Positions 1,273-46,618 of a DNA stretch of 64,000 nucleotides are shown here, piece by piece. The translations under genes were made by a program, and so were the position numbers. Location of the stretch: the NCBI GenBank assembly GCA_035602195.1, contig DATNMU010000216.1, positions 4,853 through 68,852 on the forward strand, in the 5' to 3' direction. Numbering within the stretch: the first letter of the stretch is position 1; the number at the start of each line of letters is the position of its first letter. The DNA is from Candidatus Acidiferrum sp. Its GTDB lineage: Bacteria; Acidobacteriota; Terriglobia; Terriglobales; Acidobacteriaceae. The notes beneath the pieces are model-generated. The model had not been told where the DNA came from. It saw nothing but the letters and a program-made list of their open reading frames with translations, and made no database searches.

Positions 1273-2406
1273 CTACCTCAACTTCAGCGTCGTCAACGCA
1301 AACAACGCGAACACCAGCGACGCAATCCAAAACCGCACAATAATCTTCGACTCCGACCATCCCATCAGTTCGAAATGATGATGGATCGGCGCCATCTTGA
1401 ATATCCTTTTCTTGCGCAGCTTGTACGACCCCACCTGCAAGATCACCGACATCGCCTCGATTACAAACACTCCTCCAATAAATGGCAGCAGCAATTCCTG
1501 TTTGATGATTACTGCCACAGTGCCAATCGCTCCGCCCAGCGCGAGCGATCCCACATCGCCCATAAACACCTCTGCGGGATGCGCGTTGTACCATAGAAAC
1601 CCAATCGACGACCCCACCATCGCCCCGCAAAAAATCGTCAACTCGCCCACCTGCGGCATCTTCGGAATTTCCAGATATGTCGCGAACGTCGCGTGCCCAC
1701 TCACATAAGTCAACATGGTCAACGCGCCCGCTGCAATCACCGTGCACCCGATCGCCAGCCCGTCCAATCCGTCCGTAAGGTTCACGGCGTTGCTCGATCC
1801 CACAATCACCAGCGCAACAAACGCAATGAAGGGCAGAAACGCCAGCGGCCACAAGTGCGGATAATGCTCCAGGGTCTGCACCACCAGGTTGGGATGAAAC
1901 TGCTTGATGAAAGGCACGATCAACTTGGTCGAATACAGCCCATGGTTCTGCATCGCAATCAGCATCACCGCGATCACCACGCTGGTCGCGATCTGCAGTC
2001 CCAGCTTCGCCCGTCCCGTCAAACCCAGATTTCGACGGTGCACCACCTTGGTGTAATCGTCAGTAAATCCAATCGCCGCAAATGCGCAAGTGGCAAATAC
2101 CGCCACCCAAACGAAGCGGTTGCTCAAGTCCGCCCACAGCAGCGTCGGAACCACAATCGCAATCGCGATCAGCAAGCCGCCCATGGTCGGCGTTCCCGCT
2201 TTTTTCTGATGCGCCTTCGGACCCTCTTCGCGGATGTACTGTCCAATCTGGAATTCGCGCAGCCGGTTGATCACCAGCGGACCCACGATGAGCGCGGTAA
2301 ACAGTGCGGTAAGGCTGGCGAACGCAGTGCGAAACGTCAAATAGCGAAAGATGCGAAACGGCGGAAAATAATGTTGCAGCTTCACGAACAACAGCCAATA
2401 GAGCAA
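1273..2406 (-). CDS. mraY: Phospho-N-acetylmuramoyl-pentapeptide transferase MraY
   Basis: 377-aa polytopic membrane protein with typical MraY sequence (GPxxHxxKxGTPTMGG, NAVNLTDGLDGLA, HHHFE). dcw context. Confidence 0.95.
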   Translation of the reverse strand: MLYWLLFVKLQHYFPPFRIFRYLTFRTAFASLTALFTALIVGPLVINRLREFQIGQYIREEGPKAHQKKAGTPTMGGLLIAIAIVVPTLLWADLSNRFVWVAVFATCAFAAIGFTDDYTKVVHRRNLGLTGRAKLGLQIATSVVIAVMLIAMQNHGLYSTKLIVPFIKQFHPNLVVQTLEHYPHLWPLAFLPFIAFVALVIVGSSNAVNLTDGLDGLAIGCTVIAAGALTMLTYVSGHATFATYLEIPKMPQVGELTIFCGAMVGSSIGFLWYNAHPAEVFMGDVGSLALGGAIGTVAVIIKQELLLPFIGGVFVIEAMSVILQVGSYKLRKKRIFKMAPIHHHFELMGWSESKIIVRFWIASLVFALFALTTLKLR

Positions 2407-2429: not shown

Positions 2430-3809
2430 TCAGTTACCACCGTCGCGACGAGTCTTCCAGATTTCTAACGCCTTCTCCAACTTCACCCCGCGCGAAGCTT
2501 TCAAAAGCACTGCGTCGCCATCCCGCGCCTCGCGTGCCAGCCATTCGCCGGCTTTCTCGGAATCGGCTGCAAACTCGGCGCGCATCCCCGCCTGCTTTGC
2601 TGCGCCCACCATCGCCTCAGCGAGGCCGCGCACGCCCAGCAACACATCGATTTTTTTCCCGGCGATATGTTCCCCGGCTTGCCGATGCAGCTCTTCGCCC
2701 GCCGGCCCCAGTTCCAGCATCTCCCCCGCAACCACGATGCGCCGTTTAGCCGCCATCCTCGCCAACGCATCCACCATTGCATCCAGGGCCTTTGGATTCG
2801 AATTGTAGCAATCGTTGATCACCGTGATGTTACCCACTTGAAGAACCTGACCACGCTTATCGGCCGCAGCCAAACTTGCCAGCGCCGCCACCGCCTCTGA
2901 AGGCTTCATCCCGCGCTCTAAGCCGACCGCAACTGCCGCCAGCGCATTCAGCACGTTATGCTCACCCACCAGCGGGAGAACCGCGTGTTCACGCACGCCT
3001 CCTATCACCACATCGAATTCAACCCCCTCGCGCCCCTTCGTCTGTATTTTTTCCGCACGCACGTCCGCTGTCGATCGAGTGCCATACATCACAACTTTCC
3101 CTTTGAACCCGCGCCCGAACTGCGAGACGTAATCGTCATCGGAGTTCAACACCGCTGTGCCATTCGCCGGCAGCGACTCGATTAATTCATATTTCGCCCG
3201 CGCAATCCCCGCCAGCGAATCAAAAAACTCCAAATGCACCGGCGCGACGTTCGTCACCACTCCAACCTCCGGATGCGCAATTGTCGCCAGCGCCCGGATT
3301 TCCCCCGGATGCGACATGCCCATCTCTATCACCGCCACCTCATATCCTGGCTCCAGTTTCAAGAGCATCAACGGCAAGCCGAAATGATTATTAAAATTTC
3401 CTTCGGACTTCAGCACGCGAAAGCGCGCGCTCAACACGTGCGCAATCGCTTCCTTCGTCGTCGTCTTTCCCGCTGACCCGGTCACTCCCACAAGCGTCTT
3501 GCCCCACAACTTCCGGACCGCTTTAGCCAAAGTTTGCAGCGCTACCAAGGTGTCTTCAACCGCCAGAAGCCGGGCCTTGTTCGCGTAGCGTCCCAACTGT
3601 TCTTTACCCACCACCGCCGCGACCGCGCCCTTTTCCAAAGCCTGCTGCACAAAATCGTGGCCATCCAGTCGCTCCCCCTTCACCGCAAAAAACAGCTGCC
3701 CCGCCCCGAGCGTCCTCGAATCAATGGAGTACCCCTCAACCACCTCTTCCGCCGAAAAATCTCCCTTCGCAGAAATGAATTCAGCGATCTTGGAAAGCGT
3801 GAGCTTCAT
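2430..3809 (-). CDS. murF: UDP-N-acetylmuramoyl-tripeptide--D-alanyl-D-alanine ligase MurF
   Basis: 459 aa with a Mur-ligase P-loop (GVTGSAGKTTTKE). Lies between murE and mraY. Confidence 0.93.
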   Translation of the reverse strand: MKLTLSKIAEFISAKGDFSAEEVVEGYSIDSRTLGAGQLFFAVKGERLDGHDFVQQALEKGAVAAVVGKEQLGRYANKARLLAVEDTLVALQTLAKAVRKLWGKTLVGVTGSAGKTTTKEAIAHVLSARFRVLKSEGNFNNHFGLPLMLLKLEPGYEVAVIEMGMSHPGEIRALATIAHPEVGVVTNVAPVHLEFFDSLAGIARAKYELIESLPANGTAVLNSDDDYVSQFGRGFKGKVVMYGTRSTADVRAEKIQTKGREGVEFDVVIGGVREHAVLPLVGEHNVLNALAAVAVGLERGMKPSEAVAALASLAAADKRGQVLQVGNITVINDCYNSNPKALDAMVDALARMAAKRRIVVAGEMLELGPAGEELHRQAGEHIAGKKIDVLLGVRGLAEAMVGAAKQAGMRAEFAADSEKAGEWLAREARDGDAVLLKASRGVKLEKALEIWKTRRDGGN

Positions 3810-3812
3810 CCT

Positions 3813-3875
3813 TTGTCATCCTGAGCGAAGGTTGCGCTTCGCGAACGCGAAGCACAACCGTAGTCGAAGGACCCC
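3813..3875. repeat. Hairpin repeat, family A (TTGTCATCCTGAGCGAAG...GTCGAAGGACC)
   Basis: ttgtcatcctgagcgaaggttgcgcttcgcgaacgcgaagcacaaccgtagtcgaaggacccc in the murE-murF spacer. Related copies lie at 20075-20139, 36237-, 37299- and 37705-, with variants at 11111, 23385, 33915, 35686 and 55059. Confidence 0.9.
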
Positions 3876-3966
3876 ATGTTTGCTGGCATTACCACCTGCT
3901 TCGCAAGGCATTCCTATCACTGCCTCATCTTCACCCCTTTCGCTCGCCAAATGAGTCACGAACTCC

Positions 3967-5478
3967 TCAACTCCCCGCCCCAACCGCCTCCCCCTCAAAC
4001 CCCGCCCCTCGTAGAGCCTCCCGCGCCACTTCCAGATCATCAAACGGAACCGATCCCTCCCGCGTCGCTTGCACCTTCTCGTGCCCTTTGCCCGCAAGCA
4101 GCACAATATCTCCCGGTCGCGCTTCAGCAATTGCCAAGGCAATCGCCTTCCGACGATCCGCTTCCACGCTGTACCTCACTCCAGTTTTCTGCAAACCCAC
4201 CAGCGCATCATTAATAATCTTCAGCGGATCTTCGGTGCGCGGATTGTCCGACGTCAGCACCACAAAATCGCTGCCCCGCCCCGCCGCCTCGCCCATCAAA
4301 GGACGCTTGGCACGATCGCGATCTCCGCCGCAGCCGAAGACCGTTAAAACACGCCCCTTAGTCCCCACGCTCGAAACCAATTCCCGTGCCAATGCTGTCA
4401 GATTTCGCAACGCATCATCGGTATGCGCATAATCCACCACCACCGTAAATGGCTGACCGCAATCGACCCGCTCAAACCTTCCCGGAACGCACGCCAGCTT
4501 GTCGATTCCCGCCGCAATCGCCTCCGCCGAACACCCTCGGGCAAAGCCCACCCCCGCCGCCGCCAGAATGTTGTACACATTCACCCGTCCAATCAGCGAC
4601 GAGAACACTGCAATCTTTCCCGTGGGCGCAACCAAATCAAACCGCGTTCCGCGCGTCGTTATCTCCACTTTCTCCGCGCGCAAATCGCCGCACTTCCATC
4701 CATACTTCAGCACTACGGAACTTCGCTTCCGGCTGAACTCCGCCAGCTTCGCTCCAGCCTCGTCGTCCACATTGGTCACCACTGCGCGCGGCGCATCGGT
4801 TCCGCACCCTTCAAACAGAACCTTCTTCGCCGCGAAATATTCTTCCATGCTCTTGTGATAATCGAGATGATCGCGGGTCAAATTGGTAAACACAGCCACA
4901 TCAAACGGCACCCCGTAAACGCGCTCCTGCGCCAGAGCATGCGAGGAGACCTCCATTACCGCCTCGGTCGCTCCGTTTCCCAGCGCTTCATTCAGAATGC
5001 GATTCAGATCGAGCGCCTCTGGCGTGGTGTGCGGCGCCGGTAAAACTTTTCCCGCCACGTGATATTCAATCGTCCCAATCACCGCGCTCTTTCGCCCCGC
5101 CGCCGTTAGAATCGCTTCCACTAGAAACGCCGTGGTGCTCTTCCCATTCGTGCCGGTAATCCCCGTAATTGCAATCCGCTCAGCCGGCTTCTTATAAAAA
5201 TTCGCGCTCACTCGCGCCAGCGCCCGCCGTCCATGCGAAACCGCGGCCCACGCCACGCCCTCGCGCGGCTTCTCCGCCGCCGAATCCGTGACTATCGCCA
5301 CCGCTCCCGCCTGAATTGCCTGATCGATAAATCGTTTGCCGTCGCTCGATTCCCCGCGCATGGCCACAAACACGCAACCCGGCTTCACCCGTCGCGAGTC
5401 GTATTCCACACCACTTACGATCGGATCCCCGCTCTGCGCGAGAACTTCCGCCCCATCCAGCACCTGTTGGAAGGTCAT
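3967..5478 (-). CDS. murE: UDP-N-acetylmuramoyl-L-alanyl-D-glutamate--2,6-diaminopimelate ligase MurE
   Basis: 503 aa with P-loop GITGTNGKSTT and a DNPR motif (LTSDNPRTEDP), which is typical of meso-DAP-adding MurE. Confidence 0.93.
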   Translation of the reverse strand: MTFQQVLDGAEVLAQSGDPIVSGVEYDSRRVKPGCVFVAMRGESSDGKRFIDQAIQAGAVAIVTDSAAEKPREGVAWAAVSHGRRALARVSANFYKKPAERIAITGITGTNGKSTTAFLVEAILTAAGRKSAVIGTIEYHVAGKVLPAPHTTPEALDLNRILNEALGNGATEAVMEVSSHALAQERVYGVPFDVAVFTNLTRDHLDYHKSMEEYFAAKKVLFEGCGTDAPRAVVTNVDDEAGAKLAEFSRKRSSVVLKYGWKCGDLRAEKVEITTRGTRFDLVAPTGKIAVFSSLIGRVNVYNILAAAGVGFARGCSAEAIAAGIDKLACVPGRFERVDCGQPFTVVVDYAHTDDALRNLTALARELVSSVGTKGRVLTVFGCGGDRDRAKRPLMGEAAGRGSDFVVLTSDNPRTEDPLKIINDALVGLQKTGVRYSVEADRRKAIALAIAEARPGDIVLLAGKGHEKVQATREGSVPFDDLEVAREALRGAGFEGEAVGAGS

Positions 5479-11179: not shown

Positions 11180-11560
11180 TCACGCGAGAACAATATCCAG
11201 GCCCGCGGCATCAACGAATGCCCGAAAATCCCTATCTCGTGTGATCAGCGATGTCCCCGAGTCAATGCAACTCTGCGCAATGAGCGCATCCCCCAGACGC
11301 GCCTTGCGGCGCTTTGACAGAACCTTCGCCCGCAAACCTCCTGCCCGCTGCCAATAGCCTACTTCCACGGCGATCAGAGGAACTTGGACGAGCGTCTCGG
11401 CAACATTGGGAGCAAGCCGCGCGTCGCTTAACAGCTCGGTAAGTACGACCGGCACCATCAGCACCTGCCGGTCTGCGAGCGCCTTGTCGAGCAACAGCGT
11501 ATCTTGGCCAGACTCACCCTCGAGAAAGGCAATCCAAGTGCTCGTGTCAGCTGCGATCAT
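11180..11560 (-). CDS. vapC: PIN-domain toxin VapC
   Basis: 126 aa. MIAADTSTWIAFL...VPVVLTELL...DALIAQSCIDSGTSLITRDRDF shows the PIN acidic residue pattern. Confidence 0.85.
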   Translation of the reverse strand: MIAADTSTWIAFLEGESGQDTLLLDKALADRQVLMVPVVLTELLSDARLAPNVAETLVQVPLIAVEVGYWQRAGGLRAKVLSKRRKARLGDALIAQSCIDSGTSLITRDRDFRAFVDAAGLDIVLA

Positions 11561-11700: not shown

Positions 11701-11891
11701 TTCAATTCGGCCGCGGTGCGGGAAAAACGGACCTTGCCATGCAGTAGCCGCAGCCGCTCGTAGGTCTTCGATGCAGCCACCAGTTGCAGGCCGGTACGCA
11801 CGGTTTGAGTAATCCCCGCTCCGCTCGCCTGTTGCGCTCTCTCCAGCAACTCCCCCGGAATCTCCACTGTGATTTTGCGCGCCGCTTCCAT
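11688..11891 (-). CDS. vapB: VapB-type antitoxin
   Basis: From the internal ATG at 11891: MEAARKITVEIPGELLERAQQASGAGITQTVRTGLQLVAASKTYERLRLLHGKVRFS... This is the typical short VapB/DUF2191-like pattern, upstream of vapC. Confidence 0.75.
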   Translation of the reverse strand: MEAARKITVEIPGELLERAQQASGAGITQTVRTGLQLVAASKTYERLRLLHGKVRFSRTAAELKADR

Positions 11892-12196
11892 ATTCCTAAT
11901 ATACCATAGTCGATACCAGCATTGAATATGGTGGACTCGGCGAAAGCACGGACCGGGATGGTCCAAAATTTTCGCCGTTACTCAGTCAACAAACGTGGAC
12001 ATGCAAAACCAGCCTCCGCGCACCATTTCCTCCACTGCTACAATTCCCTGTTTTGACGAAACTCGCCTCGCAAGAACTTTGGGCAGCACATCCACGTACT
12101 GTCTTGTGAGAAACGCGCATTCAAGTTTAAGAGTCTGGTTTCGCTGAAAGCTGACGGCTGATAGCTGACAGCCGCTTTTCCGGGGAGCTTCAACTT

Positions 12197-12793
12197 TTGG
12201 AAGACGTCCAGGTAGTCGCGATGCTGGTCCGCCGCTGTGTAGCCGGCGACGCCGCTGCCTGGGAAGAAATCGTTCAAGCCTACAACCGCCGTATCTATAA
12301 CATCTGCTACCGCTTCGCCGGCTCCGCCAACGACGCCGAAGACCTCACCCAGGAAGTTTTCATCAAGATGTACCGCACGCTTTCCAGTTACGACCACACC
12401 AGAGGCGCTTTCGTCACCTGGGTCACCACCATCACCCGCAACCTGCTGGTCGATCATTTCCGCAAGACCAAGCAGGACCGCGTCACCGACTCGCTCGACG
12501 CCCAATCCCCGCACGAAGACGCCTTACCTCTGAGCGAGCAAATTCAGGACCATTCCGCCGCTCCCGACGCCCGCGTGCGCAGCCGCGAGGTCGGCGAAAC
12601 CGTTCACGCCGCCTTGGCCAAGCTCTCGCCAGAGTTACGCGAAGCAGTGATTCTAAGAGACTTACAGGATTTTGATTACAAAGAAATCGCTACCGTTTTG
12701 AAGGTTCCGGAGGGTACTGTGAAAAGCCGAATAAATCGTGGCCGCGCGGAACTAGCGCGCCTGTTACAACGTACCTATAGGCAGGTGATGTGA
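12197..12793 (+). CDS. ECF (sigma-70 family, RpoE-like) sigma factor
   Basis: 198 aa with region 2 (DAEDLTQEVFIKMYR) and region 4 (LREAVILRDLQDFDYKEIATVLKVPEGTVKSRINRGR). Confidence 0.92.
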   Translation: MEDVQVVAMLVRRCVAGDAAAWEEIVQAYNRRIYNICYRFAGSANDAEDLTQEVFIKMYRTLSSYDHTRGAFVTWVTTITRNLLVDHFRKTKQDRVTDSLDAQSPHEDALPLSEQIQDHSAAPDARVRSREVGETVHAALAKLSPELREAVILRDLQDFDYKEIATVLKVPEGTVKSRINRGRAELARLLQRTYRQVM

Positions 12794-26640: not shown

Positions 26641-26742
26641 ATGTTGCCGCTTTGTAACGCTGTTGGCGCAGAGCACAGTGGGCGAACCTGCCCCTGTAAT
26701 GCGGCAGTCCGGTTGCAAGCCCGGACAGTGAAGGAGGGTCGC

Positions 26743-30416: not shown

Positions 30417-30659
30417 ATGAAAAAAGCTTCAGTCCGCGACCTCCGCTACGCCTTCACGAAGATCGAGCGCCTTTTACGTCAGGGCGAAGAGGTCCAAATC
30501 ACCAAGCGCCGCCGCGTCATTGCCCGCCTGGTCCCCGAAACTGCGGAAGGCCCGAAAGAAATACCGGATTTCCTGGCGCGCCTGCACTCAATCTACGGCG
30601 ACAAGGTTCTGGCCGTGACTGCAGCCGACCTGCTGGCCTCCGATCGGAACCGATATTGA
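30417..30659 (+). CDS. Phd/YefM-like antitoxin of a VapBC-type pair
   Basis: MKKASVRDLRYAFTKIERLLRQGEEVQITKRRRVIARLVPE...; the stop overlaps the start of the PIN gene. The tracked ORF starts at 30408, inside the putative -10 box. Confidence 0.75.
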   Translation: MKKASVRDLRYAFTKIERLLRQGEEVQITKRRRVIARLVPETAEGPKEIPDFLARLHSIYGDKVLAVTAADLLASDRNRY

Positions 30660-31084
30660 AGGTTTACGCGGATCCCAGCTTCGTCGTGTCGCTCTATAGC
30701 CCGGATGCGAACTCCATCTCCGCCGCCCGCACCATGCAAGCATCCTCTGGCGATCGCCTTCTTACTACGTTCGGAGAACTCGAAATCATCAATGCGATGG
30801 GTCTACGGGTTTTTCGCAATGAGATTTCTCTGGCCCAGTCCCGGTCCTCATTAGGCGCCTTCGAGATAGACTTGTGCGACGGGGTTTTCCTCGTCCGGAA
30901 TCTCGCCGATTCGATTCTCGAACGAGCCCGCCAATTATCGTTGCAAACCACCGCCAAGTTAGGCACCCGCTCTGCCGATTTGTTGCACGTGGCAGCGGCA
31001 ATCGAGCTGGGCGCAGATTGCATCTTCACCTTCGATCAGCATCATCGAAAGCTCGCCCAAACTCTCCGCCTAAAGCTCAACTAA
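30656..31084 (+). CDS. vapC: PIN-domain toxin VapC
   Basis: 142 aa. VYADPSFVVSLY...GELEIINAM...RSADLLHVAAAIELGADCIFTFDQ shows the PIN acidic residue pattern. 4-nt overlap with the antitoxin gene. Confidence 0.8.
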   Translation: MKVYADPSFVVSLYSPDANSISAARTMQASSGDRLLTTFGELEIINAMGLRVFRNEISLAQSRSSLGAFEIDLCDGVFLVRNLADSILERARQLSLQTTAKLGTRSADLLHVAAAIELGADCIFTFDQHHRKLAQTLRLKLN

Positions 31085-34166: not shown

Positions 34167-34565
34167 TCACTCCAACGGCAGCAGATACAAATCCAACTCG
34201 CTCATAGGAAAGTCTTTTCGGTTATCGGTGGCGAGCGAGCAGCGTTGCTTCAGCGCCACCGCCGCAACCATCGTGTCGGCCAACGTCAGCGTTCGGCCCT
34301 TTCGAGCCCACTCGTTCTTGAGCCTGCCCGCCATCTCGCCAACATCGGCGGTAATTTCGTGGCAATCAAGAACGTTTAGAAAATCTCTCGTCGCCGTTCC
34401 TTCTTCAGGCCGCATGCCGGCATAGACTTCAGCCAGGTTGAGTGCCGACGTTGCCAGCATATGCCCCGAACGCACAAGCCCAGCCAGCCACTGCCGCCGC
34501 CCGCGACGCAACCGCAAAGCATCGATCAGTACCGAGGTGTCGAGTAGAATCTGCATCGATTTCAC
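34167..34565 (-). CDS. vapC: PIN-domain toxin VapC
   Basis: MQILLDTSVLIDAL...LNLAEVYAGM...TLADTMVAAVALKQRCSLATDNRKDF. Confidence 0.85.
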   Translation of the reverse strand: MKSMQILLDTSVLIDALRLRRGRRQWLAGLVRSGHMLATSALNLAEVYAGMRPEEGTATRDFLNVLDCHEITADVGEMAGRLKNEWARKGRTLTLADTMVAAVALKQRCSLATDNRKDFPMSELDLYLLPLE

Positions 34566-35673: not shown

Positions 35674-36236
35674 CCCTTTCATGCAGTCATCCTGAGACCC
35701 ACACCCTTTGCGGCCCAAATGACCGGGCTAAACGACCTATTCATTTCGTCCTACCCACGCTCACATCTGCGCAGGTTCATCCGGGTCCGGCTCGCGCACC
35801 GGCGCATCCGGATTCTCCGGAGCATCAGGGGGTTCCTTAATCGGGGGCGGCGAAGGCTCCGGCGGTTTCCGCACGCGAAGAAAATCAGGCGGGAAGGTTT
35901 CAACTTCCAGAGAAACGGTCATCCCCCTCAGATGCCCAAACTGCAGAAATGGAAGCCGCGCCCCCAATCGCACCGCCTGCGCGCATCACCGGCAAACACC
36001 CGCGCCCCAACTCGCATCTCATTCCTGAACACGGTCGCGCCCGACGCGTCCAGCAGTTCGGACTCGCGAAGACGAACAGCGTCAGCGAATCGGCGGAGGA
36101 TATGAGGCGGTGAGGTTCAGATTTTTGCTGTTTCTCTGAACGGAGCCAACGAGCTATCTACGCCGATTCAGAGTCCCTCGCAAGCGCGCCCCTTCAGCAA
36201 CCTGCCCTGAGCCAAGCCGCACCCAGCCTTGCCACG

Positions 36237-36520
36237 GATTGTCATCCCGAGCGCAGCAAGATCACTCGCGAAGCGAATGATCCTGCGAAGTCGAGGGACC
36301 TGCTGTCTGCCTACATCGCCACCGATGAGCGGCCCTCGCTTTTCCGCTCACACAGGCACGCCCCATGTGGAGACAGCCGCCTCGGCTGTCCAAGCCTGGG
36401 CGCAGCCCGGCGCCCCCTACCACACTGCCGCCCCCCCGCTGACAAATCCGAATAAACACGCATGTTTGAAATACCGTGGAAGAGCGGCGCTTCCAGCGCC
36501 GCGTAAAGGCGCTTCTGCCT
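36237..36520 (+). repeat. Composite repeat, about 285 bp, copy 1 (family A + B + C modules)
   Basis: About 85-90% identical by eye to 37299-37600 in the same orientation, apart from a roughly 30-bp indel. A third partial copy lies at 37705-37790. Confidence 0.9.
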
Positions 36521-36531
36521 GGCGCAGCCCT

Positions 36532-37068
36532 TCAGCGCCCCGATAACGCATTCGCGCCACCGCCCCTTACCCCCCGCGCATCCAACCCCTGCCCCTCACC
36601 CGCGCCCCGCCCCTTCTCTTCCTTCTTCGCGTACGACCCTCCTCGCCACCGCCGCAACAAATGCCACGCCTCCAAATATCTTTCATACTTATTCTGCCGT
36701 CTCCACGGAGCCAGCCAGATGCTTCCCTTCCGCAGCGCCACCACTCCCGCCGGAATCACATACCACAGGTCCAGCGGAATCAGATACGCCGCCACATAAT
36801 CAATCTCCTCTAGTATGTGCCGCAATCTTTTTCCCGACGGCATGTGGCACGGATACGCCCCTCCCTTCGGCTTCCTCATCGTCGACTTCACCTGCACCCG
36901 GTTCACCAGCCCATCCCGCTCCACAATCAAGTCATAAGGAGCCGAATCTCCCCACAGCTTCCCCACCCGAAACCCCTGCTCCACTCCCCGCGCCAAAAAT
37001 CGCGCCTCCGCCCACTCCCCCCGTTCTTTCGCATTCTTGAATTGCATCCCCCGTTGTCCCATCGCCAT
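36532..37068 (-). CDS. PD-(D/E)XK endonuclease-like protein (group-I-intron-endonuclease-like family, PDDEXK_5 type)
   Basis: KERGEWAEARFLARGVEQGFRVGKLWGDSAPYDLIVERDGLVNRVQVKST has the E...D...(Q/E)VK nuclease-core pattern. The Gly/Arg-rich C-terminal tail is probably repeat-derived. Confidence 0.6.
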   Translation of the reverse strand: MAMGQRGMQFKNAKERGEWAEARFLARGVEQGFRVGKLWGDSAPYDLIVERDGLVNRVQVKSTMRKPKGGAYPCHMPSGKRLRHILEEIDYVAAYLIPLDLWYVIPAGVVALRKGSIWLAPWRRQNKYERYLEAWHLLRRWRGGSYAKKEEKGRGAGEGQGLDARGVRGGGANALSGR

Positions 37069-37298
37069 CCTCGCCTTCCCAAAAGAAAAGCGCGGCCCCT
37101 GTGGAATACAAAAGGCCGCGCTCCAGATTTTTTTCTAGTTTTTACTCTATATTTCCATTATATCAATCAGCAAACCCCTAAAGCGCCACCTTAGCCAGCA
37201 ATATTTCTCCTTTCCCTGCCACCACATACCCTCAATCGCGTAATTTCTGCCTATTGACAACATTCCCCGCAAATTGAAAAAAGAGTTCGCTAACCACC

Positions 37299-37600
37299 GA
37301 TTGTCATCCCGAGCGCAGCAAGATCATTCGCGAAGCGAAGGATCTTGCGAAGTCGAGGGACCTGCTGTCTGCCTACGTCGCCACCAATGAGCGGCCCTAG
37401 CTTTTTCGCTCATACAAGCTCGGACCATGTGGAGACAGCCGCCTCGGCTGTCCAAGCCTGAGCCTGCCCTGAGCGATAGCCGAAGGGGCGAAGCCCGGCG
37501 CCCCCGACCACACTGCCCGCCCCCCGCTGACAAATCCAAATAAATACGGATGCCTGAAATACTTGGAAGAGCGGCGCTTCCAGCGCCGCGTAAGCCGCCT
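37299..37600 (+). repeat. Composite repeat, about 300 bp, copy 2
   Basis: Direct repeat of 36237-36520 on the other side of the endonuclease gene. Confidence 0.9.
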
Positions 37601-38001
37601 TTGGGTGGCGCAGCGCTTCAGCGCTGCGATAAAACATGGACTAGAGGAACCGGGCTTCAGCCCGGTCGCCTAAGACCTGTCCTCCTCCAACACCCTTGCA
37701 ACGAATTGTCATCCCGAGCGAAGCAAGATCATTCGCGAAGCGAAGGATCCGGCAAAGTCGAAGGACCTGCTGTTTGCCTACGTCGCCACTAATGACCGAC
37801 AGCACGCTGTCTTCCTGAGCGCAGCCGAAGGGATCTCCGCCGCACCCTCTCGCCGGCTGGCAGCAGCAGAAAGTGACGAAATAACTCCGCCCGCTGTGCT
37901 GAAAACGCGTCAGTCCCTATTGCATGAGGACAATCTAGTTTGTCCGCCGGACTAAGTTTGTGAAGTGTGAACGTCCCCCCTCACGGCAAAACCGGGCTTG
38001 A

Positions 38002-38769
38002 GTGTGTAACTCGCCCGTCCAATTTCCTCCTTCTGATCCTATAGCAACAAAGCAGTTGACTCTTAAGTCCCTCGGGCCTCTAATGGCAGGCGTCGGGGGC
38101 TTTATGGACTTTCAGGCAGGAAATGCAGGGGAAGACGACAATGTCTACCGCTTTGAAGGTGTTACTAATTTTCAAGGACATCTAGAAATACGGCAAGGCC
38201 AGCTGGTCTATCTCGTTGTTCAAACCAGTGGCGACTCTAGACCTCCCGAGATAAGAGTGGTTCCTTCAGGCGGAGAGGCATTCAACGCTTTCGCATCAGC
38301 GGAGGTTTACGCAGAAGGACGCAATATCTTTGTTCGCGCTTATCGCGCGGTGAGGACTGGCTTACATAGAGTCTATGTCACAGCGGAGGATGCGGTGGTT
38401 ACCGTTGTCCAGTTTAGTGGGGACCTCATTGACAAGCTTAGGCATATGCGGCCCTCCAAGACAACCTGCATGTTCTGCACCGCTCTCCTTATGATTGCGA
38501 TCGTATTTGCGCTTCACGCCTATGCAATACCTGCGGGGGCACATGCATTAGAAGTGCTAGCGGCCAGTTATGCTACAGTGGGGGCCATCGTCGAGGCAGT
38601 CAAACAGCACATTCCCGCCAGGACGCTCGACTTTCTCGAGGATGCACTAAGGATACTGCTTGAACAGCTACACGTTGCGCCTGGATTCGCGCTCCACCCA
38701 GTTGATGCAGCTACGGAGTGGGTCTGCGGTCAGATGCGCCTTTGCCCACCACGTGCAGCCGAGGCCTAA
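38002..38769 (+). CDS. Hypothetical single-pass membrane protein (N-terminal beta-rich domain, TM helix, C-terminal helical domain); start uncertain (GTG 38002 or ATG 38083)
   Basis: 255 aa. YRFEGVTNFQGHLEIRQGQLVYLVVQTSGDSRPPEIRVV...HRVYVTAEDAVVTVVQF, then the TM helix CMFCTALLMIAIVFALHAYAI. Lower GC and rarer codons (cta, ata, aga, tta) than the flanking genes. No recognised family. Confidence 0.55.
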   Translation: MCNSPVQFPPSDPIATKQLTLKSLGPLMAGVGGFMDFQAGNAGEDDNVYRFEGVTNFQGHLEIRQGQLVYLVVQTSGDSRPPEIRVVPSGGEAFNAFASAEVYAEGRNIFVRAYRAVRTGLHRVYVTAEDAVVTVVQFSGDLIDKLRHMRPSKTTCMFCTALLMIAIVFALHAYAIPAGAHALEVLAASYATVGAIVEAVKQHIPARTLDFLEDALRILLEQLHVAPGFALHPVDAATEWVCGQMRLCPPRAAEA

Positions 38770-38898
38770 AGCTGAGAATAGCCCTTTAGGATCCAACCTC
38801 CCAAACCCTGTAAGCAGTTTGCGTGTGACTGCCCCACTCTAGCCAATACCGGGATTGAGTCGGCCACGCGCCTCGATGACAACAAAGTTAGTAAGTCG

Positions 38899-40365
38899 TT
38901 GATGCAGTTCCGGGCATCATCCTTTTTTGCTGTTAGAATTTGCGTCATGCACGCAGCGGTCGAACTTCTTGAGAAGTACGGACTAGTCCGGGACACCGAT
39001 TCACTGCGTGTAACCGAGATTGTCAAACGCAAGATCGTTCGCCTCCAGGAGGAACTGTTCTCGACGGTTGTCACCCAACAACAGGAAGACTATGGCACCG
39101 ATCTCGCCGTCAGTCGAGAAATGGACCCCTTCACTTTCTTGGCAAGCAAATCCCTGCGAGGCGAAACGGCCTGCGGCGAATATGGATGCAGGGTTGAAAA
39201 GCTTGACGCGCTTGGGCGTTACGCTGCTCTGTACGCGAACCAGATTATCCTTCCTCTTCCTCTCACCGATCCCTCGACGATGGATGGCCCTGAGGAGGCC
39301 GCTCAGGAAGTTTCCATGGCTGCGCTGGCGCTCCTCCGTCTGCGACCGCTCTTCGATGCTGGCATCCTCTACCCGGTAATTAGGCGATCTTTCCACTGCC
39401 GTCACACTCTCAGGTGGTGCCAGGAGATGCAAGCGATCGTGGACCGGGCGTCATTGAATATGATGAAGGCCTTGAAAGATGATTTCTTAGTAAGGTTTCA
39501 ACTTCCAGACAAGGCTCCGACGCGAATCCCCAGTATGTACATCGAGGGTCCAGAAGACTTCCTGGAGCATGGCCAGATCGTGATGCTGTTCAACGAACCG
39601 GAGGAATGGAGAGCGAAGAGATGGAAATTCGATGACGAAGGAATGGTCGAGGTCCGCGGCGACAGGAAGCTTGCCGCCCTTTACAGAATCTTCATCGGCA
39701 TAGCAGAAGACACCTCCTTCTATCTAGCATATGGGCGCAACCGGAACGCCCGGCTGCTCACGAATCTTCCAGGGGAGACCTTCCTGCTGGATGCGCTGAC
39801 CGGAGACGACGAAGTCTCGGCAAGCAGCGCAGCCCTCCACGACTGCATGACCCACTCGTTGCCCTTGCTGGCGGGCCTCCCAATTTCCAGGCTCTTGGCG
39901 ATTCGACACGAGGAGCGTGATTCTTTCGAACGATATCGTCTAGCGGTTAGGCAAATCCTGCTGCAAGTCTCCCAGGCGGGTAAGCGGATTCGCAAGAAGG
40001 AAATGCGCGAGCTCTTTCAAGAACGGATCGAACCCGAGCTTGCAAGGATGAAATCGGAGCTTTACCAGGAACGGCGCAGGCAGCGGAGACGAGTTGGAGT
40101 GGGCCTGGCGGGCCTGGCTGCCATGGTGGGAATGGGCGCATTTGGCGGAATTGTCCCCGGAGTTGCGACCGCCGCGGCTGCTGGCGGAGTTTCTTCTGGA
40201 ATAGTGCCCGCGATCGCTAAAGCAGCCATGGCCGTCGCGCCGGGAATCGCCGGAACCAGCCTCTTAGGCAAAGCAGCGCAGTCCTACTGTGAGCACGGAG
40301 CCACCATAAAGGAGAGAAACGATTTCTACTTCTTGCTTCGGCTGACCCAGGAAGCTGAAAGTTGA
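38899..40365 (+). CDS. Hypothetical 472-488-aa protein with a C-terminal Gly/Ala-zipper hydrophobic tail (alternative start at ATG 38947)
   Basis: Long uninterrupted ORF in the lower-GC region. The C-terminus reads RRRQRRRVGVGLAGLAAMVGMGAFGGIVPGVATAAAAGGVSSGIVPAIAKAAMAVAPGIAGTSLLG. No motif I can assign. Confidence 0.65.
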   Translation: MMQFRASSFFAVRICVMHAAVELLEKYGLVRDTDSLRVTEIVKRKIVRLQEELFSTVVTQQQEDYGTDLAVSREMDPFTFLASKSLRGETACGEYGCRVEKLDALGRYAALYANQIILPLPLTDPSTMDGPEEAAQEVSMAALALLRLRPLFDAGILYPVIRRSFHCRHTLRWCQEMQAIVDRASLNMMKALKDDFLVRFQLPDKAPTRIPSMYIEGPEDFLEHGQIVMLFNEPEEWRAKRWKFDDEGMVEVRGDRKLAALYRIFIGIAEDTSFYLAYGRNRNARLLTNLPGETFLLDALTGDDEVSASSAALHDCMTHSLPLLAGLPISRLLAIRHEERDSFERYRLAVRQILLQVSQAGKRIRKKEMRELFQERIEPELARMKSELYQERRRQRRRVGVGLAGLAAMVGMGAFGGIVPGVATAAAAGGVSSGIVPAIAKAAMAVAPGIAGTSLLGKAAQSYCEHGATIKERNDFYFLLRLTQEAES

Positions 40366-40405
40366 AAAGCGCTAGCGGAAATCGGACCCAGACGGAACGT
40401 TCCCA

Positions 40406-40705
40406 CTACCTAGTTCGAATCACACCCAGAGAGAAGCGCAGAGCAACACACACTTCATTCATTCGTGCCGAACTAAGCTGGGCCACACGTTTCCCCAGGC
40501 GCTGTCGCGACACCGTAACGGCATTGTGCAGGTTCACCGCGCACGGGGACTTCATGCCATCCTCGATGAACAAATGGAACGCTTCCAAAAAAGCCAAAGC
40601 CCCGAGCATCGCTCGAGGCTTCGAGATACTAGACGACGTTCGCCAAACACTTATCATGATAAACGGGGCACTTGAATTGTCAAGAAACTTTGGTATCGAG
40701 TGACC
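40406..40705 (-). pseudogene. MazF/PemK-like toxin remnant. The N-terminus is fused to or overlaps the tRNA-like gene, and no antitoxin partner is present.
   Basis: The C-terminal half GMKSPCAVNLHNAVTVSRQRLGKRVAQLSSARMNEVCVALRFSLG matches the MazF pattern GL..D..A....IR.I...RL...IG.LS...L..L..AL...L. The N-terminal half is poorly conserved, and the first 16 codons of the tracked ORF are tRNA sequence. Confidence 0.4.
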
Positions 40706-40706
40706 G

Positions 40707-40792
40707 AGGAGGGCAAGGGAGTCGAACCCTAGTGGCTGCAAACCACTCGACATTTGGCGAACGTCGTCCAGTACCCACTGGCAGTACCCTCC
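40707..40792 (-). tRNA. Non-canonical tRNA-like gene with SelC/allo-tRNA-type architecture. The anticodon is uncertain (GCC if the loop is 7 nt) and is not UCA.
   Basis: Reverse complement: GGAGGGTA-CTG-CCAGT-GGGT-ACTGG-A-CGACGT-TCGCCAA-ATGTCG-AGTGG-TTTGCAG-CCACT-AGGG-TTCGACT-CCCT-TGCCCTCC-T. Elements: 8-bp acceptor (9 with the flanking A:T), 5-bp D stem with 4-nt loop, 6-bp anticodon stem, 5-bp variable-arm stem, 4-bp T stem, canonical TTCGACT T-loop. CCA is not encoded. Confidence 0.65.
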
Positions 40793-41116
40793 TAAACGAA
40801 TCGTCCACCGTGTAACATCGTATGGGCACTTACTTGCGAAACGAACTGTGTGGTCATAAATATTTGGGGAACTGTACCAATTCGGGAGAACAAAAAGGGC
40901 GTGGCCTACTCAAGCCCGCTTTTGGCTTGAACGGTGCGGTTCGTGTGATCCACATCTCATCGCTCGGCAGAAGAGGGTCGATGGCTAGAGAAGCTTTTAT
41001 TTCTTTTGCTTTTCTCTGCGCCTCTGTGTCTCTGTGGTGAAAGGGCGGGCATTCTCAAAGGTAGTTCGCCAGAGATTTTGAATTAAAACTCCCGACCCAA
41101 TCCGCGCCACCCCCCA

Positions 41117-44140: not shown

Positions 44141-46618
44141 ATGAAAATTTCTCCACAGTGGGTGCGGGAGTTTGTTGATCTATCCGTCGACGACCAGCGG
44201 CTGGCGGAGGATTTGACGGCGGCGGGAATTGCGGTCGAAGGAATTTCCGGCTCCGGCGCGGACACTGTGTTCGAGATGGAGATTGGGACGAACCGTCCGG
44301 ACGCGATGAATCATTATGGAATCGCGCGGGAGGCGGCGGCGATTTATGACTTGCGGCTGAAAGAGCTGTCAGCTGTCAGCTCTCAGCTTTCAGCGAACCC
44401 ATCGAAGGCGAGTGTTAAGGCGTCTGACATGGCGCTGAAGCGGCGCTCTTCCACGGGGCGGGGTGGCGCTAAGAAGAAAGCCTCAGCGGCTAAAGCCGCT
44501 TCTTCTGCTGCTTCTCACGGCGCGGCTGGAAGCCGCGCCCTTTCAAGGCAAACATCAGGGGCTGAAGCCCTTTCCTCTTCTGCCTCTTACGGGACGACTC
44601 GAGTCGTGCCCTTCCCCATCACTGTCGAGGAGCCGGAGTTGTGTCCGCGGTTTTCGGCGCGGGTGATTCGCGGGACCAGGATTAAGGCTTCGCCTGAGAA
44701 GATTGCACATCGGTTGCGGTTGCTGGACCAGCGGCCTATTTCGAATGCGGTTGACGCGACCAATTATGTTTTGTGGGAAATGGGCAAGCCGACGCATGTA
44801 TTCGACATGGGTTTGCTGGAGGGTGGGCGGCTCATTATCCGGCGCGCGAAGGATGGGGAGAAGCTGAAGACGCTGGATGGAGTGGAGCGCACGCTGTCTT
44901 CGGAAGATCTGGTCGTGGCTGATGCGAAAAAACCTGTTGGGCTTGCGGGTGTAATGGGCGGGTTCGACACCATGATTACCGACAGGACAAAAAATATTTT
45001 GATTGAGTCCGCGTGGTGGGATCCGGTGACGGTGCGCAAAACTTCGCGGCGGCACGGGATTCATACCGACGCTTCGCATCGGTTTGAGCGGGGAGCGGAC
45101 TTTGAGTCGACGGTTTTGTCGTGCGATCTGGTGGCGAAGCTGATTTTGGAATCGGGCGGCGGAGAGTTGGTGGGCGGCGCGATTGATGTGGTGTCACGGC
45201 AGATGGATCAGGCACCGATTGTTTTGCGGCTTTCGGAGGTACATCGGATACTCGGTGGGAATCTGAGTGCGGGAGAAATCTTCCGCATTCTGAAAAAGCT
45301 TGGGTTTGGTGTGATTCCAGAAGGGCAGGCGGACGCGAAATTTCGCGTGCAGATTCCTAGCTGGCGGCTGGACGTGGAGCGCGAGATCGATTTGCTTGAA
45401 GAGATCGCGCGGGTGCACGGGTACGACAAGTTTGAAAATACTTTGCCGGCGTATAGCGGCGCGGTTGTGGATTTGCCGAATGCGGCGATGGATGTGGCTT
45501 TTCGCGAGCGGGCGTTGGCTCTGGGTTACAACGAGGCGGTGTCGCTGACGTTTATTTCGCATGCGGCGGCGGAGACGTTTGGATTCCTGACGGAGGCCTC
45601 AGCGGCTATTGCCGTAGATCATTTGTCGGCGAGTACGGCTCGGCTGGGAGCCGCGCCCTTTCAAAGCGCGAGCGGGCGAGTGTTAGATGCGGCGACCCTT
45701 CCAATCCGGAACGAACCTGGGCTGGACGCCGCATCCCTTGCGAGCGGCACTGGGCGGGTACTCGAGTTGGAGAATCCGTTGAGCGAAGAAGCGAGTGTGA
45801 TGCGGACTTCGCTGGCGCCGGGGATGCTCGACATGCTGGCGTGGAACTTGAACCGCGATGCGGAAGAAGTGCGGCTGTTTGAGATGGGGCGCGTGTATGA
45901 GATGCGCAGCGGAGAGCGGGTTGAGCCGCAGCGTGCGTGCCTGGGAGCAACGATGGCGTCGGTCGTAGGATCGCTGCCGGCGGCTGGCAGGCTGGACATC
46001 AGCGGGCCGTTGAATTCCCCATTCAAGCCAAAAGAAGGCTTGAATGGGGCACCCCTTCAAGTGGAAGCTTTTCGCGGGTTCAAAGGCGACGTGGAGAATT
46101 TGCTGGCGGCATTTTCATATCGCGAGTTGAGCTTCGATCGGAAGACCGCGGGGCATTTTCATCGGTGGCGCTCGGCGCGCGCTTTGATGGATGGGGCGGT
46201 GGTGGCGCAGTTTGGGCAGATTGCGGAAGAGGTGAAGGCGGAGCGGAAGTTACGGCAGGATATTTTTCTGGCGGAGTTCGATTTGGACGAACTGCACGCG
46301 CGCGGGCTGCGGGCAGTTCGATTTGCGGCCTTGGGAAAATATCCGGCGGTGGAGCGGGATTTTTCGTTTGTATTTTCGGATGAGGTGGAGTTTGAGGCGA
46401 TGCGGCGGGCGGTGATGGCGCTGGGGATTCGCGAGTTGCGTGAATTCAGGCCGGTGGAGATTTTTCGGGGTGGGTCGATTGGCGCGAGCAAGTATTCAAT
46501 TTTGCTGCGGGCGAAGTTGCAATCGGATGAGGGGACGTTGCGGGATGAGCAGATTGCGCAGTGGGCGGAGAAGATGGTTGGGGCGCTGAAGGGTATTGGT
46601 GGGGTGCAGCGGGCTTAG
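44141..46618 (+). CDS. pheT: Phenylalanine--tRNA ligase beta subunit (no B2 tRNA-binding domain; three repeat-derived insertions)
   Basis: 825 aa. MKISPQWVREFV, IGTNRPDAMNHYGIAREAAAIY, LCPRFSARVIRG, NAVDATNYVLWEMGKPTHVFD, GLAGVMGG, and the FDX-ACB-like C-terminus (KYPAVERDFSFVF). Confidence 0.92.
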   Translation: MKISPQWVREFVDLSVDDQRLAEDLTAAGIAVEGISGSGADTVFEMEIGTNRPDAMNHYGIAREAAAIYDLRLKELSAVSSQLSANPSKASVKASDMALKRRSSTGRGGAKKKASAAKAASSAASHGAAGSRALSRQTSGAEALSSSASYGTTRVVPFPITVEEPELCPRFSARVIRGTRIKASPEKIAHRLRLLDQRPISNAVDATNYVLWEMGKPTHVFDMGLLEGGRLIIRRAKDGEKLKTLDGVERTLSSEDLVVADAKKPVGLAGVMGGFDTMITDRTKNILIESAWWDPVTVRKTSRRHGIHTDASHRFERGADFESTVLSCDLVAKLILESGGGELVGGAIDVVSRQMDQAPIVLRLSEVHRILGGNLSAGEIFRILKKLGFGVIPEGQADAKFRVQIPSWRLDVEREIDLLEEIARVHGYDKFENTLPAYSGAVVDLPNAAMDVAFRERALALGYNEAVSLTFISHAAAETFGFLTEASAAIAVDHLSASTARLGAAPFQSASGRVLDAATLPIRNEPGLDAASLASGTGRVLELENPLSEEASVMRTSLAPGMLDMLAWNLNRDAEEVRLFEMGRVYEMRSGERVEPQRACLGATMASVVGSLPAAGRLDISGPLNSPFKPKEGLNGAPLQVEAFRGFKGDVENLLAAFSYRELSFDRKTAGHFHRWRSARALMDGAVVAQFGQIAEEVKAERKLRQDIFLAEFDLDELHARGLRAVRFAALGKYPAVERDFSFVFSDEVEFEAMRRAVMALGIRELREFRPVEIFRGGSIGASKYSILLRAKLQSDEGTLRDEQIAQWAEKMVGALKGIGGVQRA

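Follow-up and report, generated by a model that had tools for sequence, protein, structure and literature searches.

We analysed a 64-kb window (the whole stretch of DNA under study) of contig DATNMU010000216.1 from Candidatus Acidiferrum sp., and in it a stretch of about 2.8 kb that carries two large open reading frames (ORF-A and ORF-B), a remnant of a mazF/pemK toxin gene and a tRNA-like gene. A first-pass annotation had described this stretch as one accessory island at the 3' end of the tRNA-like gene, with the two large genes as a candidate membrane-acting or defence module. Our reading, to which we give a probability of about 0.6, is that the stretch is a patchwork of four unrelated, separately acquired units, not one island or two-gene system. 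These units would have piled up at a variable site, with a repeat-rich spacer on one side and the infC-rpmI-rplT-pheST operon on the other. They are module A, which contains ORF-A; module B, which appears to be a self-contained single gene, ORF-B, with its own -10 box; the mazF remnant; and a unit that holds the tRNA-like gene, here assigned to the allo-tRNAs.

Borders of the four units

The units and their genes are as follows.

37877-38872, + strand: module A, ORF-A with about 200 nt upstream and about 100 nt downstream; the block is also found in unrelated contigs
38002-38769, + strand: ORF-A open frame, from the ORF list
38083-38769, + strand: ORF-A coding sequence, 228 aa from ATG 38083; 221 aa from the conserved start at 38104
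38915-40370: module B
38899-40365, + strand: ORF-B open frame, from the ORF list
38947-40365, + strand: ORF-B coding sequence, 472 aa, from homologue starts and nucleotide homology
40406-40582, - strand: mazF/pemK remnant (C-terminal half), Pfam PF02452
40586-40793: allo-tRNA unit
40706-40792 (unit end 40793), - strand: tRNA-like gene (allo-tRNA), ARAGORN 'tRNA-Gly gcc', 87 nt

Both large ORFs (38002-38769 and 38899-40365, + strand) are present where they had first been placed, and their lengths were revised. The 255 aa given for ORF-A become 221-228 aa, since its homologues begin at the Met of 38104 and gene callers take 38083. For ORF-B, 472-488 aa had been proposed; the 472-aa form was retained and the longer form dropped, because all homologues and the nucleotide homology place the start at ATG 38947.

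The borders were drawn by nucleotide homology to other contigs, which are denoted by L numbers. Positions 37877-38872 are the exact span of 83% nucleotide identity to L016 and L017, with no homology beyond. On L016 the relative of ORF-A (79% amino acid identity) adjoins a TraI-like helicase, and no ORF-B is found there. The homology blocks of ORF-B in L003, L150, L151 and L004 (71-89% nucleotide identity) are confined to 38881/38915-40365/40384; they begin 30-66 nt before the ORF-B ATG and reach no further than the stop codon, with unrelated sequence on either side. A break in nucleotide homology at 38872/38881-38915 separates the two genes, and two signals lie close to it.

38900-38929, + strand: terminator-like hairpin and T-run between ORF-A and ORF-B
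38934-38939, + strand: -10-like box TAGAAT, 7 nt upstream of the ORF-B ATG; kept in L003, L150, L151 and L004

The TAGAAT box is part of the conserved 30-66-nt leader that moves with the ORF-B gene, and TAnAAT boxes stand 6-14 nt before the start codon in most other ORF-B family loci. Given the position of the box 7 nt before the ATG and its recurrence across the family, the ORF-B mRNA is probably leaderless or near-leaderless and transcribed independently. An integron cassette was considered as the cause of the tight single-gene borders and rejected, as no GTTRRRY core site was found at the junctions.

ORF-A and ORF-B were never found together elsewhere, ORF-A being absent from every other locus with an ORF-B relative that was examined. 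The first-pass annotation had itself taken a lack of co-occurrence outside this genome as telling against a two-gene cassette, and this is what the check returned. In the roughly 15 ORF-B-family neighbourhoods inspected, the gene was solitary in each, its place differed and no partner was conserved. No tRNA adjoined an ORF-B relative in the loci inspected elsewhere. An all-against-all BLAST of the ORFs lying within 4 kb of 19 ORF-B family genes returned sporadic pairs only.

The composition of the stretch was compared with that of its surroundings. A GC content of 50-53% had been estimated by eye, which proved too low; the measured value is 54.9% (ORF-A, 54.0%; ORF-B, 56.8%) against 57.3% for the window, and is like that of adjoining core genes (infC, 55.2%; rpmI, 51.0%; pheS, 55.8%). 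The enrichment of rare codons, by contrast, was borne out. Per 1000 codons, CTA, ATA, AGA and AGG reach 13-17.5 in ORF-A and 6.3-19 in ORF-B, against 2-5 in seven housekeeping genes of the window; the GC content of third codon positions, 0.693 in these seven genes, falls to 0.515 in ORF-A and to 0.638 in ORF-B. Since codon usage is atypical and relatives of both genes stand in unrelated contexts, the segment is accessory DNA, and the codon-level signals support a foreign origin.

An allo-tRNA(GCC) gene and a candidate antisense RNA

In allo-tRNAs as defined by Mukai et al. 2017 (NAR 45:2776, PMC5389517), the 12-bp acceptor branch is split 8/4 or 9/3 instead of 7/5. Their body resembles that of a selenocysteine (Sec) tRNA: the D-stem is long and capped by a tetraloop, the anticodon stem has 6 bp and the variable arm is long. 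The discriminator at position 73 is G or U, the anticodon does not usually specify serine, and the class is further marked by Ser or Ala identity in aminoacylation and by its use in translation. In the tRNA-like gene of the window, the acceptor stem GGAGGGUA/UGCCCUCC has 8 bp and the T-stem AGGG/CCCU has 4 bp, an 8/4 split that an extra A-U pair could make 9/4, as in the Rfam tRNA-Sec alignment. The D-stem has 5-6 bp and a tetraloop GGGU; the anticodon stem CGACGU/AUGUCG has 6 bp and closes a 7-nt loop, UCGCCAA, with the anticodon GCC; the variable arm is long, with a 7-bp stem; and the discriminator is U73. Position 33 is C, not the usual U. The minimum free energy (MFE) fold is a cloverleaf. 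By these features of sequence and predicted fold, the gene is an 8/4 allo-tRNA(GCC) as Mukai et al. 2017 define the class. It falls outside the Rfam tRNA-Sec family (RF01852): its score of 46.7 bits lies below the cutoff of 47, and its anticodon is GCC, not UCA.

The gene shares with the acidobacterial allo-tRNA loci of Mukai et al. 2017 the 8/4 split, the Sec-like body, U73 and a non-Ser anticodon, as well as a soil acidobacterium as host. It also shares with them the adjacency of toxin-antitoxin genes; here the mazF remnant lies beside the gene and two VapC genes lie within 10 kb. Allo-tRNAs are known near toxin-antitoxin genes (PMC5389517), so that, the gene being an allo-tRNA, its adjacency to such material follows a known pattern. 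The anticodon differs: UAU, GCG and GUC predominate in the accessible part of that paper (PMC5389517), where GCC is not mentioned. U73, C35 and C36 are identity elements of glycyl-tRNA synthetase as well, so that the allo-tRNA(GCC) could be charged with glycine and be harmless.

Between the allo-tRNA and the mazF remnant, three further signals lie on the strand of the allo-tRNA.

40656-40683, - strand: sigma-70-type promoter-like site TTGACA-16-TATCAT, predicted start near 40649
40627-40647, - strand: 21-nt seed UUUGGCGAACGUCGUCUAGUA, 20/21 complementary to the allo-tRNA
40586-40624, - strand: strong intrinsic terminator (14-bp stem with 8 GC pairs, U-run), which ends the unit of allo-tRNA and small RNA (sRNA)

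The seed is complementary to the 3' strand of the D-stem, the 5' strand of the anticodon stem and the anticodon loop, and the pairing extends to about 25 bp when G-U pairs are included. A 21-mer complement of this kind did not occur in 100 shuffles, and 0 are expected by chance in the window. The predicted duplex between seed and tRNA has an energy of -43.8 kcal/mol, compared with -17.8 +/- 2.9 kcal/mol for shuffled seeds. The promoter-like site is the only 11/12 match to sigma-70 on either strand of the 64-kb window. Given that the promoter match is followed by the seed and then by the terminator, as in trans-acting antisense RNAs, an anti-tRNA sRNA of about 60 nt, composed of seed and terminator and starting near 40649, is likely encoded here. 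Such an RNA could sequester the allo-tRNA.

The antisense RNAs of type I toxin-antitoxin systems and the tRNA-precursor sponges (3'ETS-leuZ) are short RNAs with a 5' single-stranded seed and a Rho-independent terminator. The candidate would resemble them in this make-up and in being encoded next to its complementary target, and would differ from them in that this target is a tRNA-like RNA, not an mRNA or sRNA. To our knowledge, no pair of an antisense RNA and a tRNA-like target as described here has been known. In the accessible part of Mukai et al. 2017 (PMC5389517), neither an antisense partner nor a downstream series of promoter, seed and terminator is described, and the 2020 review of allo-tRNAs reports no such partner, the word 'antisense' being absent from it.

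We tentatively consider, at odds well below even, that the allo-tRNA(GCC) and the RNA of about 60 nt encoded 58 nt downstream form an RNA-only pair akin to a toxin and its antitoxin. In such a pair, the antisense RNA would restrain a tRNA that may mis-decode, by unfolding or sequestering it or by targeting it for RNase III. If true, the known association of allo-tRNAs with toxin-antitoxin loci would gain a mechanistic explanation; if general, an antisense partner would make both the role of the allo-tRNAs and their proximity to toxin-antitoxin genes directly testable.

The same arrangement may also be explained without a separate antisense RNA, and we regard this explanation as a serious one, though it too falls short of an even chance. 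The 21-nt complement would then be a functionless scar of a partial inverted duplication, or a 3' trailer of the tRNA that acts only in cis, as a signal for precursor folding or processing. Only 58 nt separate the tRNA from the complement, which lies downstream on the same strand and ahead of the sole terminator, so that a transcript reading through from the tRNA promoter would contain it. In the MFE structure of such a read-through precursor, a long-range duplex of about 25 bp supplants the cloverleaf (z = -5.6), and no second organism showed the complement among the metagenome matches listed and the fetched loci. A scar or a trailer accounts less readily for the sharp end of the similarity on both sides of the 21-mer, or for its position exactly between the best sigma-70 match, spaced for a transcript that starts with the seed, and a strong terminator.

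Further copies were sought. No second allo-tRNA(GCC) was found among the metagenome matches listed; the body pattern of the gene is GCCAGTGGGTACTGG-N7-TCGCCAA, and the pattern GGTTCGANTCCCNNNCCCTCC was too general, returning type-II tRNAs (Ser, Leu, Tyr). An allo-tRNA covariance model run over 569 kb of fetched loci returned canonical type-II tRNAs only, and two exact-pattern scans of viral contigs gave 0 matches.

ARAGORN, run over all loci, reported irregular tRNAs in L053, L060 and L093, none with a clear downstream complement. L060 carries at 12173-12258 (- strand) a type-II tRNA with the anticodon UAU, followed by a promoter-like site (TTGACT...TATAAA) and a terminator hairpin; this terminator resembles the anticodon arm of its own tRNA, a likeness that is ambiguous because the arm is palindromic. 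In L093, a Sec-like irregular tRNA at about 1860-1960 (+ strand) is directly followed by a second tRNA. The tRNA of L053, at about 11440-11538 (+ strand), carries an additional stem-loop that separates its acceptor stem from its D-arm.

The mazF remnant

A minus-strand ORF at 40406-40753 matches PemK/MazF (PF02452) with 27.9 bits (cutoff, 23.1; E = 2.8e-6). Its residues 58-108 align to model positions 54-108 of 109, and since only these are covered, the ORF holds the C-terminal half of the toxin. The MazF match among the PHROGs is weak, and gene callers report only 67 aa. A MazF/PemK-like C-terminal half that lacks an antitoxin ORF had been proposed here, as had toxin-antitoxin debris within the accessory segment, and both agree with these results.

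The remnant shares with type II toxins of the MazF/PemK family (PF02452) the C-terminal 50 residues or so, above the Pfam cutoff. Unlike those systems, it lacks the N-terminal half and a mazE-like gene, and RNA signals lie over its upstream open frame. No antitoxin-like ORF was found beside it; the upstream place on the minus strand is taken by the terminator, the seed, the promoter and the allo-tRNA. Judged by its sequence, the remnant is a pseudogene, not a system.

The reading frame is open into the tRNA, as had been noted. Residues 1-57, however, show no similarity to PemK and overlie the RNA signals, namely the promoter-like site, the 21-nt anti-tRNA segment and the strong terminator. Homology to PemK starts at about 40582, right after the terminator, which suggests that the allo-tRNA unit replaced the 5' half of mazF together with any mazE. 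The truncation had been ascribed to recombination at the tRNA 3' end; replacement by the allo-tRNA unit, not an integrase acting at that end, takes the place of this explanation.

ORF-B, a relocating gene with a membrane-hairpin-like tail

ORF-B has 86 close homologues, and a profile search extended its relatives to 1,498 clusters at 50% identity. All of its genome matches (12/12) are metagenome-assembled genomes (MAGs) of Acidobacteriota. The ratio of nonsynonymous to synonymous substitution rates (dN/dS) is 0.09-0.12, and ORF-B is thus a real gene under strong purifying selection. No plasmid or phage copy of ORF-B or of two distant relatives was found by tblastn against PLSDB and INPHARED. 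One contig from a soil metagenome, L001, is 99.9-100% identical to the window over 11.6 kb, apart from a 41-bp deletion in ORF-B.

39309-39349 (L001 2125-2127): 41-bp segment missing in L001; frameshift that splits ORF-B into 130 and 312 aa

Since L001 carries this frameshift allele, ORF-B looks dispensable in the sister population, unless the deletion is an assembly artefact.

The AlphaFold2 (AF2) model of ORF-B has an alpha/beta N-domain (residues 1-280) with a predicted local distance difference test (pLDDT) score of about 90; a helical region and a single long helix come next, and the C-terminus is modelled with low confidence. The tail agrees with the first description, in that ...QERRRQRRR precedes a hydrophobic stretch of about 60 aa that is rich in Gly and Ala; a conserved tail comes in addition. 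The Gly/Ala-rich segment, at about aa 383-441 after RRRQRRR, is rich in GxxxG and is predicted to form a hydrophobic hairpin. Because basic residues flank it on both sides, the N-domain and the tail may both be cytoplasmic and joined through a membrane hairpin. Close and distant alignments alike keep a cluster of C76, C81, C151 and H153 (or Cys), which is probably a structural Zn site. They also keep the motifs GPxxFxEHG and RxxERDxFxxYR and a C-terminal NDFYFLLRL helix, and the pattern of the tail is ...CEHG...NDFYFLLRL. The residues that are invariant across the family are Cys, Pro, Arg and Tyr, with no Asp/Glu constellation.

ORF-B had no match in PADLOC, NCBIfam or PHROGs. Sequence profile searches of the PDB with the close and distant alignments (A1, A2) gave nothing below E = 0.1, and Foldseek searches of the PDB and BFVD with predicted structures gave nothing at E <= 0.001. 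The nearest Pfam family is DUF6236 (PF19749), to which ORF-B residues 308-425 (helical module, hydrophobic stretch and tail) align at model positions 184-296 of 324. The score of 19.5 bits lies below the cutoff of 26.2 and the match is partial, so that ORF-B is not assigned to this family. E <= 0.01 was reached by 7/34 close and 1/43 distant relatives, the distant relative P0090 scoring 26.3 bits. The N-terminal 300-aa alpha/beta domain with the Cys cluster is left uncovered, and, since the function of DUF6236 is unknown, the match explains nothing about ORF-B.

The best Foldseek matches of the N-domain in the PDB were HARP, the minimal protein-only RNase P (7e8j and 8ssf), at a probability of 0.7-0.8, a target-normalised TM-score of 0.4-0.5 and E = 0.1-0.2, which is not significant. 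A PIN/HARP nuclease identity was rejected: E was >= 0.12, the catalytic acids of PIN domains are not conserved and neither is the adjacency to a tRNA. Weak Pfam matches to holin and SseC models were seen in 3/34 relatives, among them Phage_holin_3_2 in 2/34 (E = 0.0035).

With glycine-zipper or holin-like abortive-infection and toxin proteins, ORF-B would have in common an Arg-rich stop-transfer followed by GxxxG-rich hydrophobic helices, and a solitary, patchy and relocating gene. Unlike abortive-infection effectors, it has no homology in PADLOC and no phage or plasmid copies, and the likeness is architectural only. From this architecture and from the behaviour of the gene, which is solitary, relocating and apparently dispensable, ORF-B may be a one-protein, membrane-anchored sensor and effector that uses a glycine-zipper hairpin, although we hold this to be unlikely. 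The cytoplasmic domain and the tail would control self-association of the hairpin, and self-association would lead to a toxin-like or abortive-infection-like action on the membrane.

This effector model stands roughly level with a plainer one, itself doubtful, in which ORF-B is an ordinary accessory membrane protein of the cytoplasmic face, perhaps a Zn-dependent enzyme or regulator that its C-terminal hairpin anchors, and has no part in conflict systems; its scattered positions would reflect ordinary gene flux in Terriglobia. Such a protein would fit the strong purifying selection, the large family with its well-conserved length, the many purely housekeeping neighbourhoods and the lack of copies on known plasmids or phages, and the Cys/His cluster lies at the C-terminal edge of the alpha/beta sheet, the usual ligand site of this fold class. 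It fits less well with a family in which, besides the cysteines, no conserved residues look catalytic and which matches no known enzyme family or fold, or with the null allele in the sister population. Moreover, copies with 83-89% nucleotide identity stand in wholly different contexts with homology that ends at the stop codon, which argues for unusually frequent relocation of the single gene.

ORF-B thereby defines a large family (about 1,500 clusters at 50% identity) that databases do not explain. Its members have a conserved domain layout, are solitary and probably leaderless, and appear to move as single units that end at the stop codon. The family lends itself well to screening by toxicity, membrane or phage-challenge assays.

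Some observations were made beside ORF-B family genes. PD-(D/E)XK_5-type genes lie 0.3-2.3 kb from such genes at three otherwise unrelated loci: the window (36532-37068, - strand), L150 (3858-4442, - strand) and L023 (9691-10416, - strand). The window and L150 proteins, one of the sporadic recurrent pairs, share 40% identity; L023 gives a weak match (E = 0.003). Another recurrent neighbour is a hypothetical protein of 150-164 aa, encoded in L024 (9542-10036, - strand) and L028 (39-494, + strand) directly beside distant ORF-B relatives; the two copies are 47% identical, have no Pfam family recorded and lie in different orientations on unrelated contigs. L008 has two Acido-Lenti-1 RNA motifs (RF01687) 400-600 nt downstream of an ORF-B relative, at 11755-11793 (- strand) and 11913-11958 (+ strand), with scores of 37.2 and 54.9 bits. 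L023 carries, at 3257-4801 (+ strand), a stand-alone Cas1 gene and an HTH_17 excisionase-like gene, at a distance of 3-5 kb from an ORF-B relative.

ORF-A

Homologues of ORF-A were found in 3 clusters only, among 5.8 billion proteins, and its dN/dS relative to L016 is 0.48. No family match was found in Pfam, PADLOC, NCBIfam or PHROGs, and tblastn against PLSDB plasmids and INPHARED phages gave no match. The AF2 model is of low confidence (pLDDT 59) and predicts a beta-sandwich of eight strands at aa 21-111, a hairpin of hydrophobic helices and further helices at the C-terminus, in line with the layout first described, a beta-rich N-domain, a hydrophobic helix and then helices. Foldseek returned generic beta-sandwich domains only (PPC/collagen-binding, PliG), at E >= 6.5e-3. 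On this comparative evidence, ORF-A is a weakly constrained orphan gene that is linked elsewhere to conjugative-element DNA.

The palindromic motif and readings as a single element

A palindromic motif with the core TCAAGCC-AAAAGNN-GGCTTGA occurs several times in and around the stretch.

37969-38003, + strand: motif copy 1, core GCAAAACCGGGCTTGAGT; left arm of a 35-nt inverted repeat
38838-38860, + strand: motif copy 2, TCTAGCCAATACCGGGATTGAGT; at the module A 3' end, some 90 nt ahead of the ORF-B ATG
40908-40942, - strand: motif copy 3 (inverted), TCAAGCCAAAAGCGGGCTTGA; right arm of the repeat, with the allo-tRNA 5' end some 115 nt downstream
46023-46043: further motif copy, inside pheT

A better copy lies in L016 at 2904-2923, 3' of the ORF-A relative and in the same place as copy 2. 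Other copies were found 63 nt upstream of a distant ORF-B relative (L026 7938-7958) and downstream of an ORF-B relative (L005 11605-11625). The two arms at 37969-38003 and 40908-40942 are complementary at 27/35 positions, which none of 60 shuffles equalled; the inverted repeat is therefore non-random, and it brackets everything from ORF-A to the tRNA. The motif may be a dispersed palindromic repeat and a recombination hot spot rather than transposon ends; a hot spot of the kind of repetitive extragenic palindromic (REP) sequences, an operator and a hairpin RNA are possible roles.

Alternatively, 37969-40942 could be one present or former non-autonomous mobile element with 35-nt terminal inverted repeats, its cargo being the two large genes, the mazF remnant and the allo-tRNA. 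The non-random repeat speaks for such an element, as does GTGT, which can be read directly outside both arms. We nevertheless consider it improbable, given that the arms are copies of a short motif that is also found inside the block, in pheT and in L005, L016 and L026, that the homology of module A to L016 begins 92 nt outside the left arm, that no transposase is present, and that ORF-B moves without these repeats.

Least probable of all, and with very little left in its favour, is that ORF-A and ORF-B form one novel membrane-acting or anti-phage cassette on an island integrated at the 3' end of the tRNA-like gene: the two genes are adjacent on the same strand, 177 nt apart, both have atypical codon usage and encode hydrophobic segments, and toxin-antitoxin debris and a tRNA-like gene lie alongside, but they are not together elsewhere, a homology break, a hairpin and a separate -10 box stand between them, there is no integrase, att repeat or PADLOC match, and ORF-B relatives are never next to a tRNA. 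The proposed integration at the tRNA 3' end fails on the same grounds; no integrase-sized ORF was found within 35.7-41.1 kb, no direct repeat of the tRNA 3' end occurs in the whole 64-kb window (as had been reported), and the tRNA-like gene, being an allo-tRNA, is not a canonical integration target. Nor was defence cargo recovered: PADLOC, PHROGs and NCBIfam gave no defence matches, the hidden Markov models of PADLOC-DB v2 had no match at E <= 1 to ORF-A, ORF-B or the MazF remnant, and no defence genes recurred as neighbours. The two-gene defence cassette does not hold up and should not go forward as a two-gene system.

Several points weigh against the patchwork and the roles proposed for its units. 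The non-random inverted repeat that brackets the stretch from ORF-A to the tRNA could mean that the four units once moved together. For ORF-B, the 41-bp deletion rests on a single metagenome assembly and may be an artefact; about half of the neighbourhoods consist of plain housekeeping genes, so that a defence-island signal is not evident; insertion of the Gly/Ala stretch into the membrane is predicted from sequence, with AF2 confidence there below 50; and no homology gives the protein an activity, searches of PADLOC, NCBIfam, PHROGs, PDB (sequence and fold) and BFVD being negative or insignificant. The anti-tRNA element has been seen in one organism only, L001 and L002 being the same strain.

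Surroundings of the stretch

The genes around the stretch are housekeeping genes mixed with toxin-antitoxin genes. Upstream, the order is aspS, cmk and mutL, a VapC gene at 30656, a MiaB-like radical-SAM gene, a VapC gene at 34167 and an NlpC/P60 gene; downstream lies infC-rpmI-rplT-pheS-pheT. The two VapC-type toxin genes, with PIN domains (30656-31084, + strand; 34167-34565, - strand), lie amid housekeeping genes at most 10 kb upstream, and the region of 30-41 kb of the window is rich in toxin-antitoxin material.

36532-37068, - strand: PD-(D/E)XK_5 gene, repeat-flanked, upstream of the stretch

The product of this gene matches the PADLOC 'homing endonuclease' (HEase) model at E = 1.4e-11. 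The gene is flanked by direct repeats of about 170-315 nt, at 36232-36546, 37294-37600 and 37699-37868, the first two of which are 92% identical. Pieces of 36-51 nt from these repeats recur with 88-97% identity both elsewhere in the window, at about 25.6, 33.9, 46.6 and 56.1 kb, and in the Acidobacteriaceae MAGs L005 and L009. Finally, a type-P5 twister ribozyme lies between cmk and an AlkZ-like gene at 26667-26724 (+ strand; RF02684; score 49.7 bits, cutoff 37.6; E = 2.5e-7), and is the sole Rfam match in the window at the gathering threshold.

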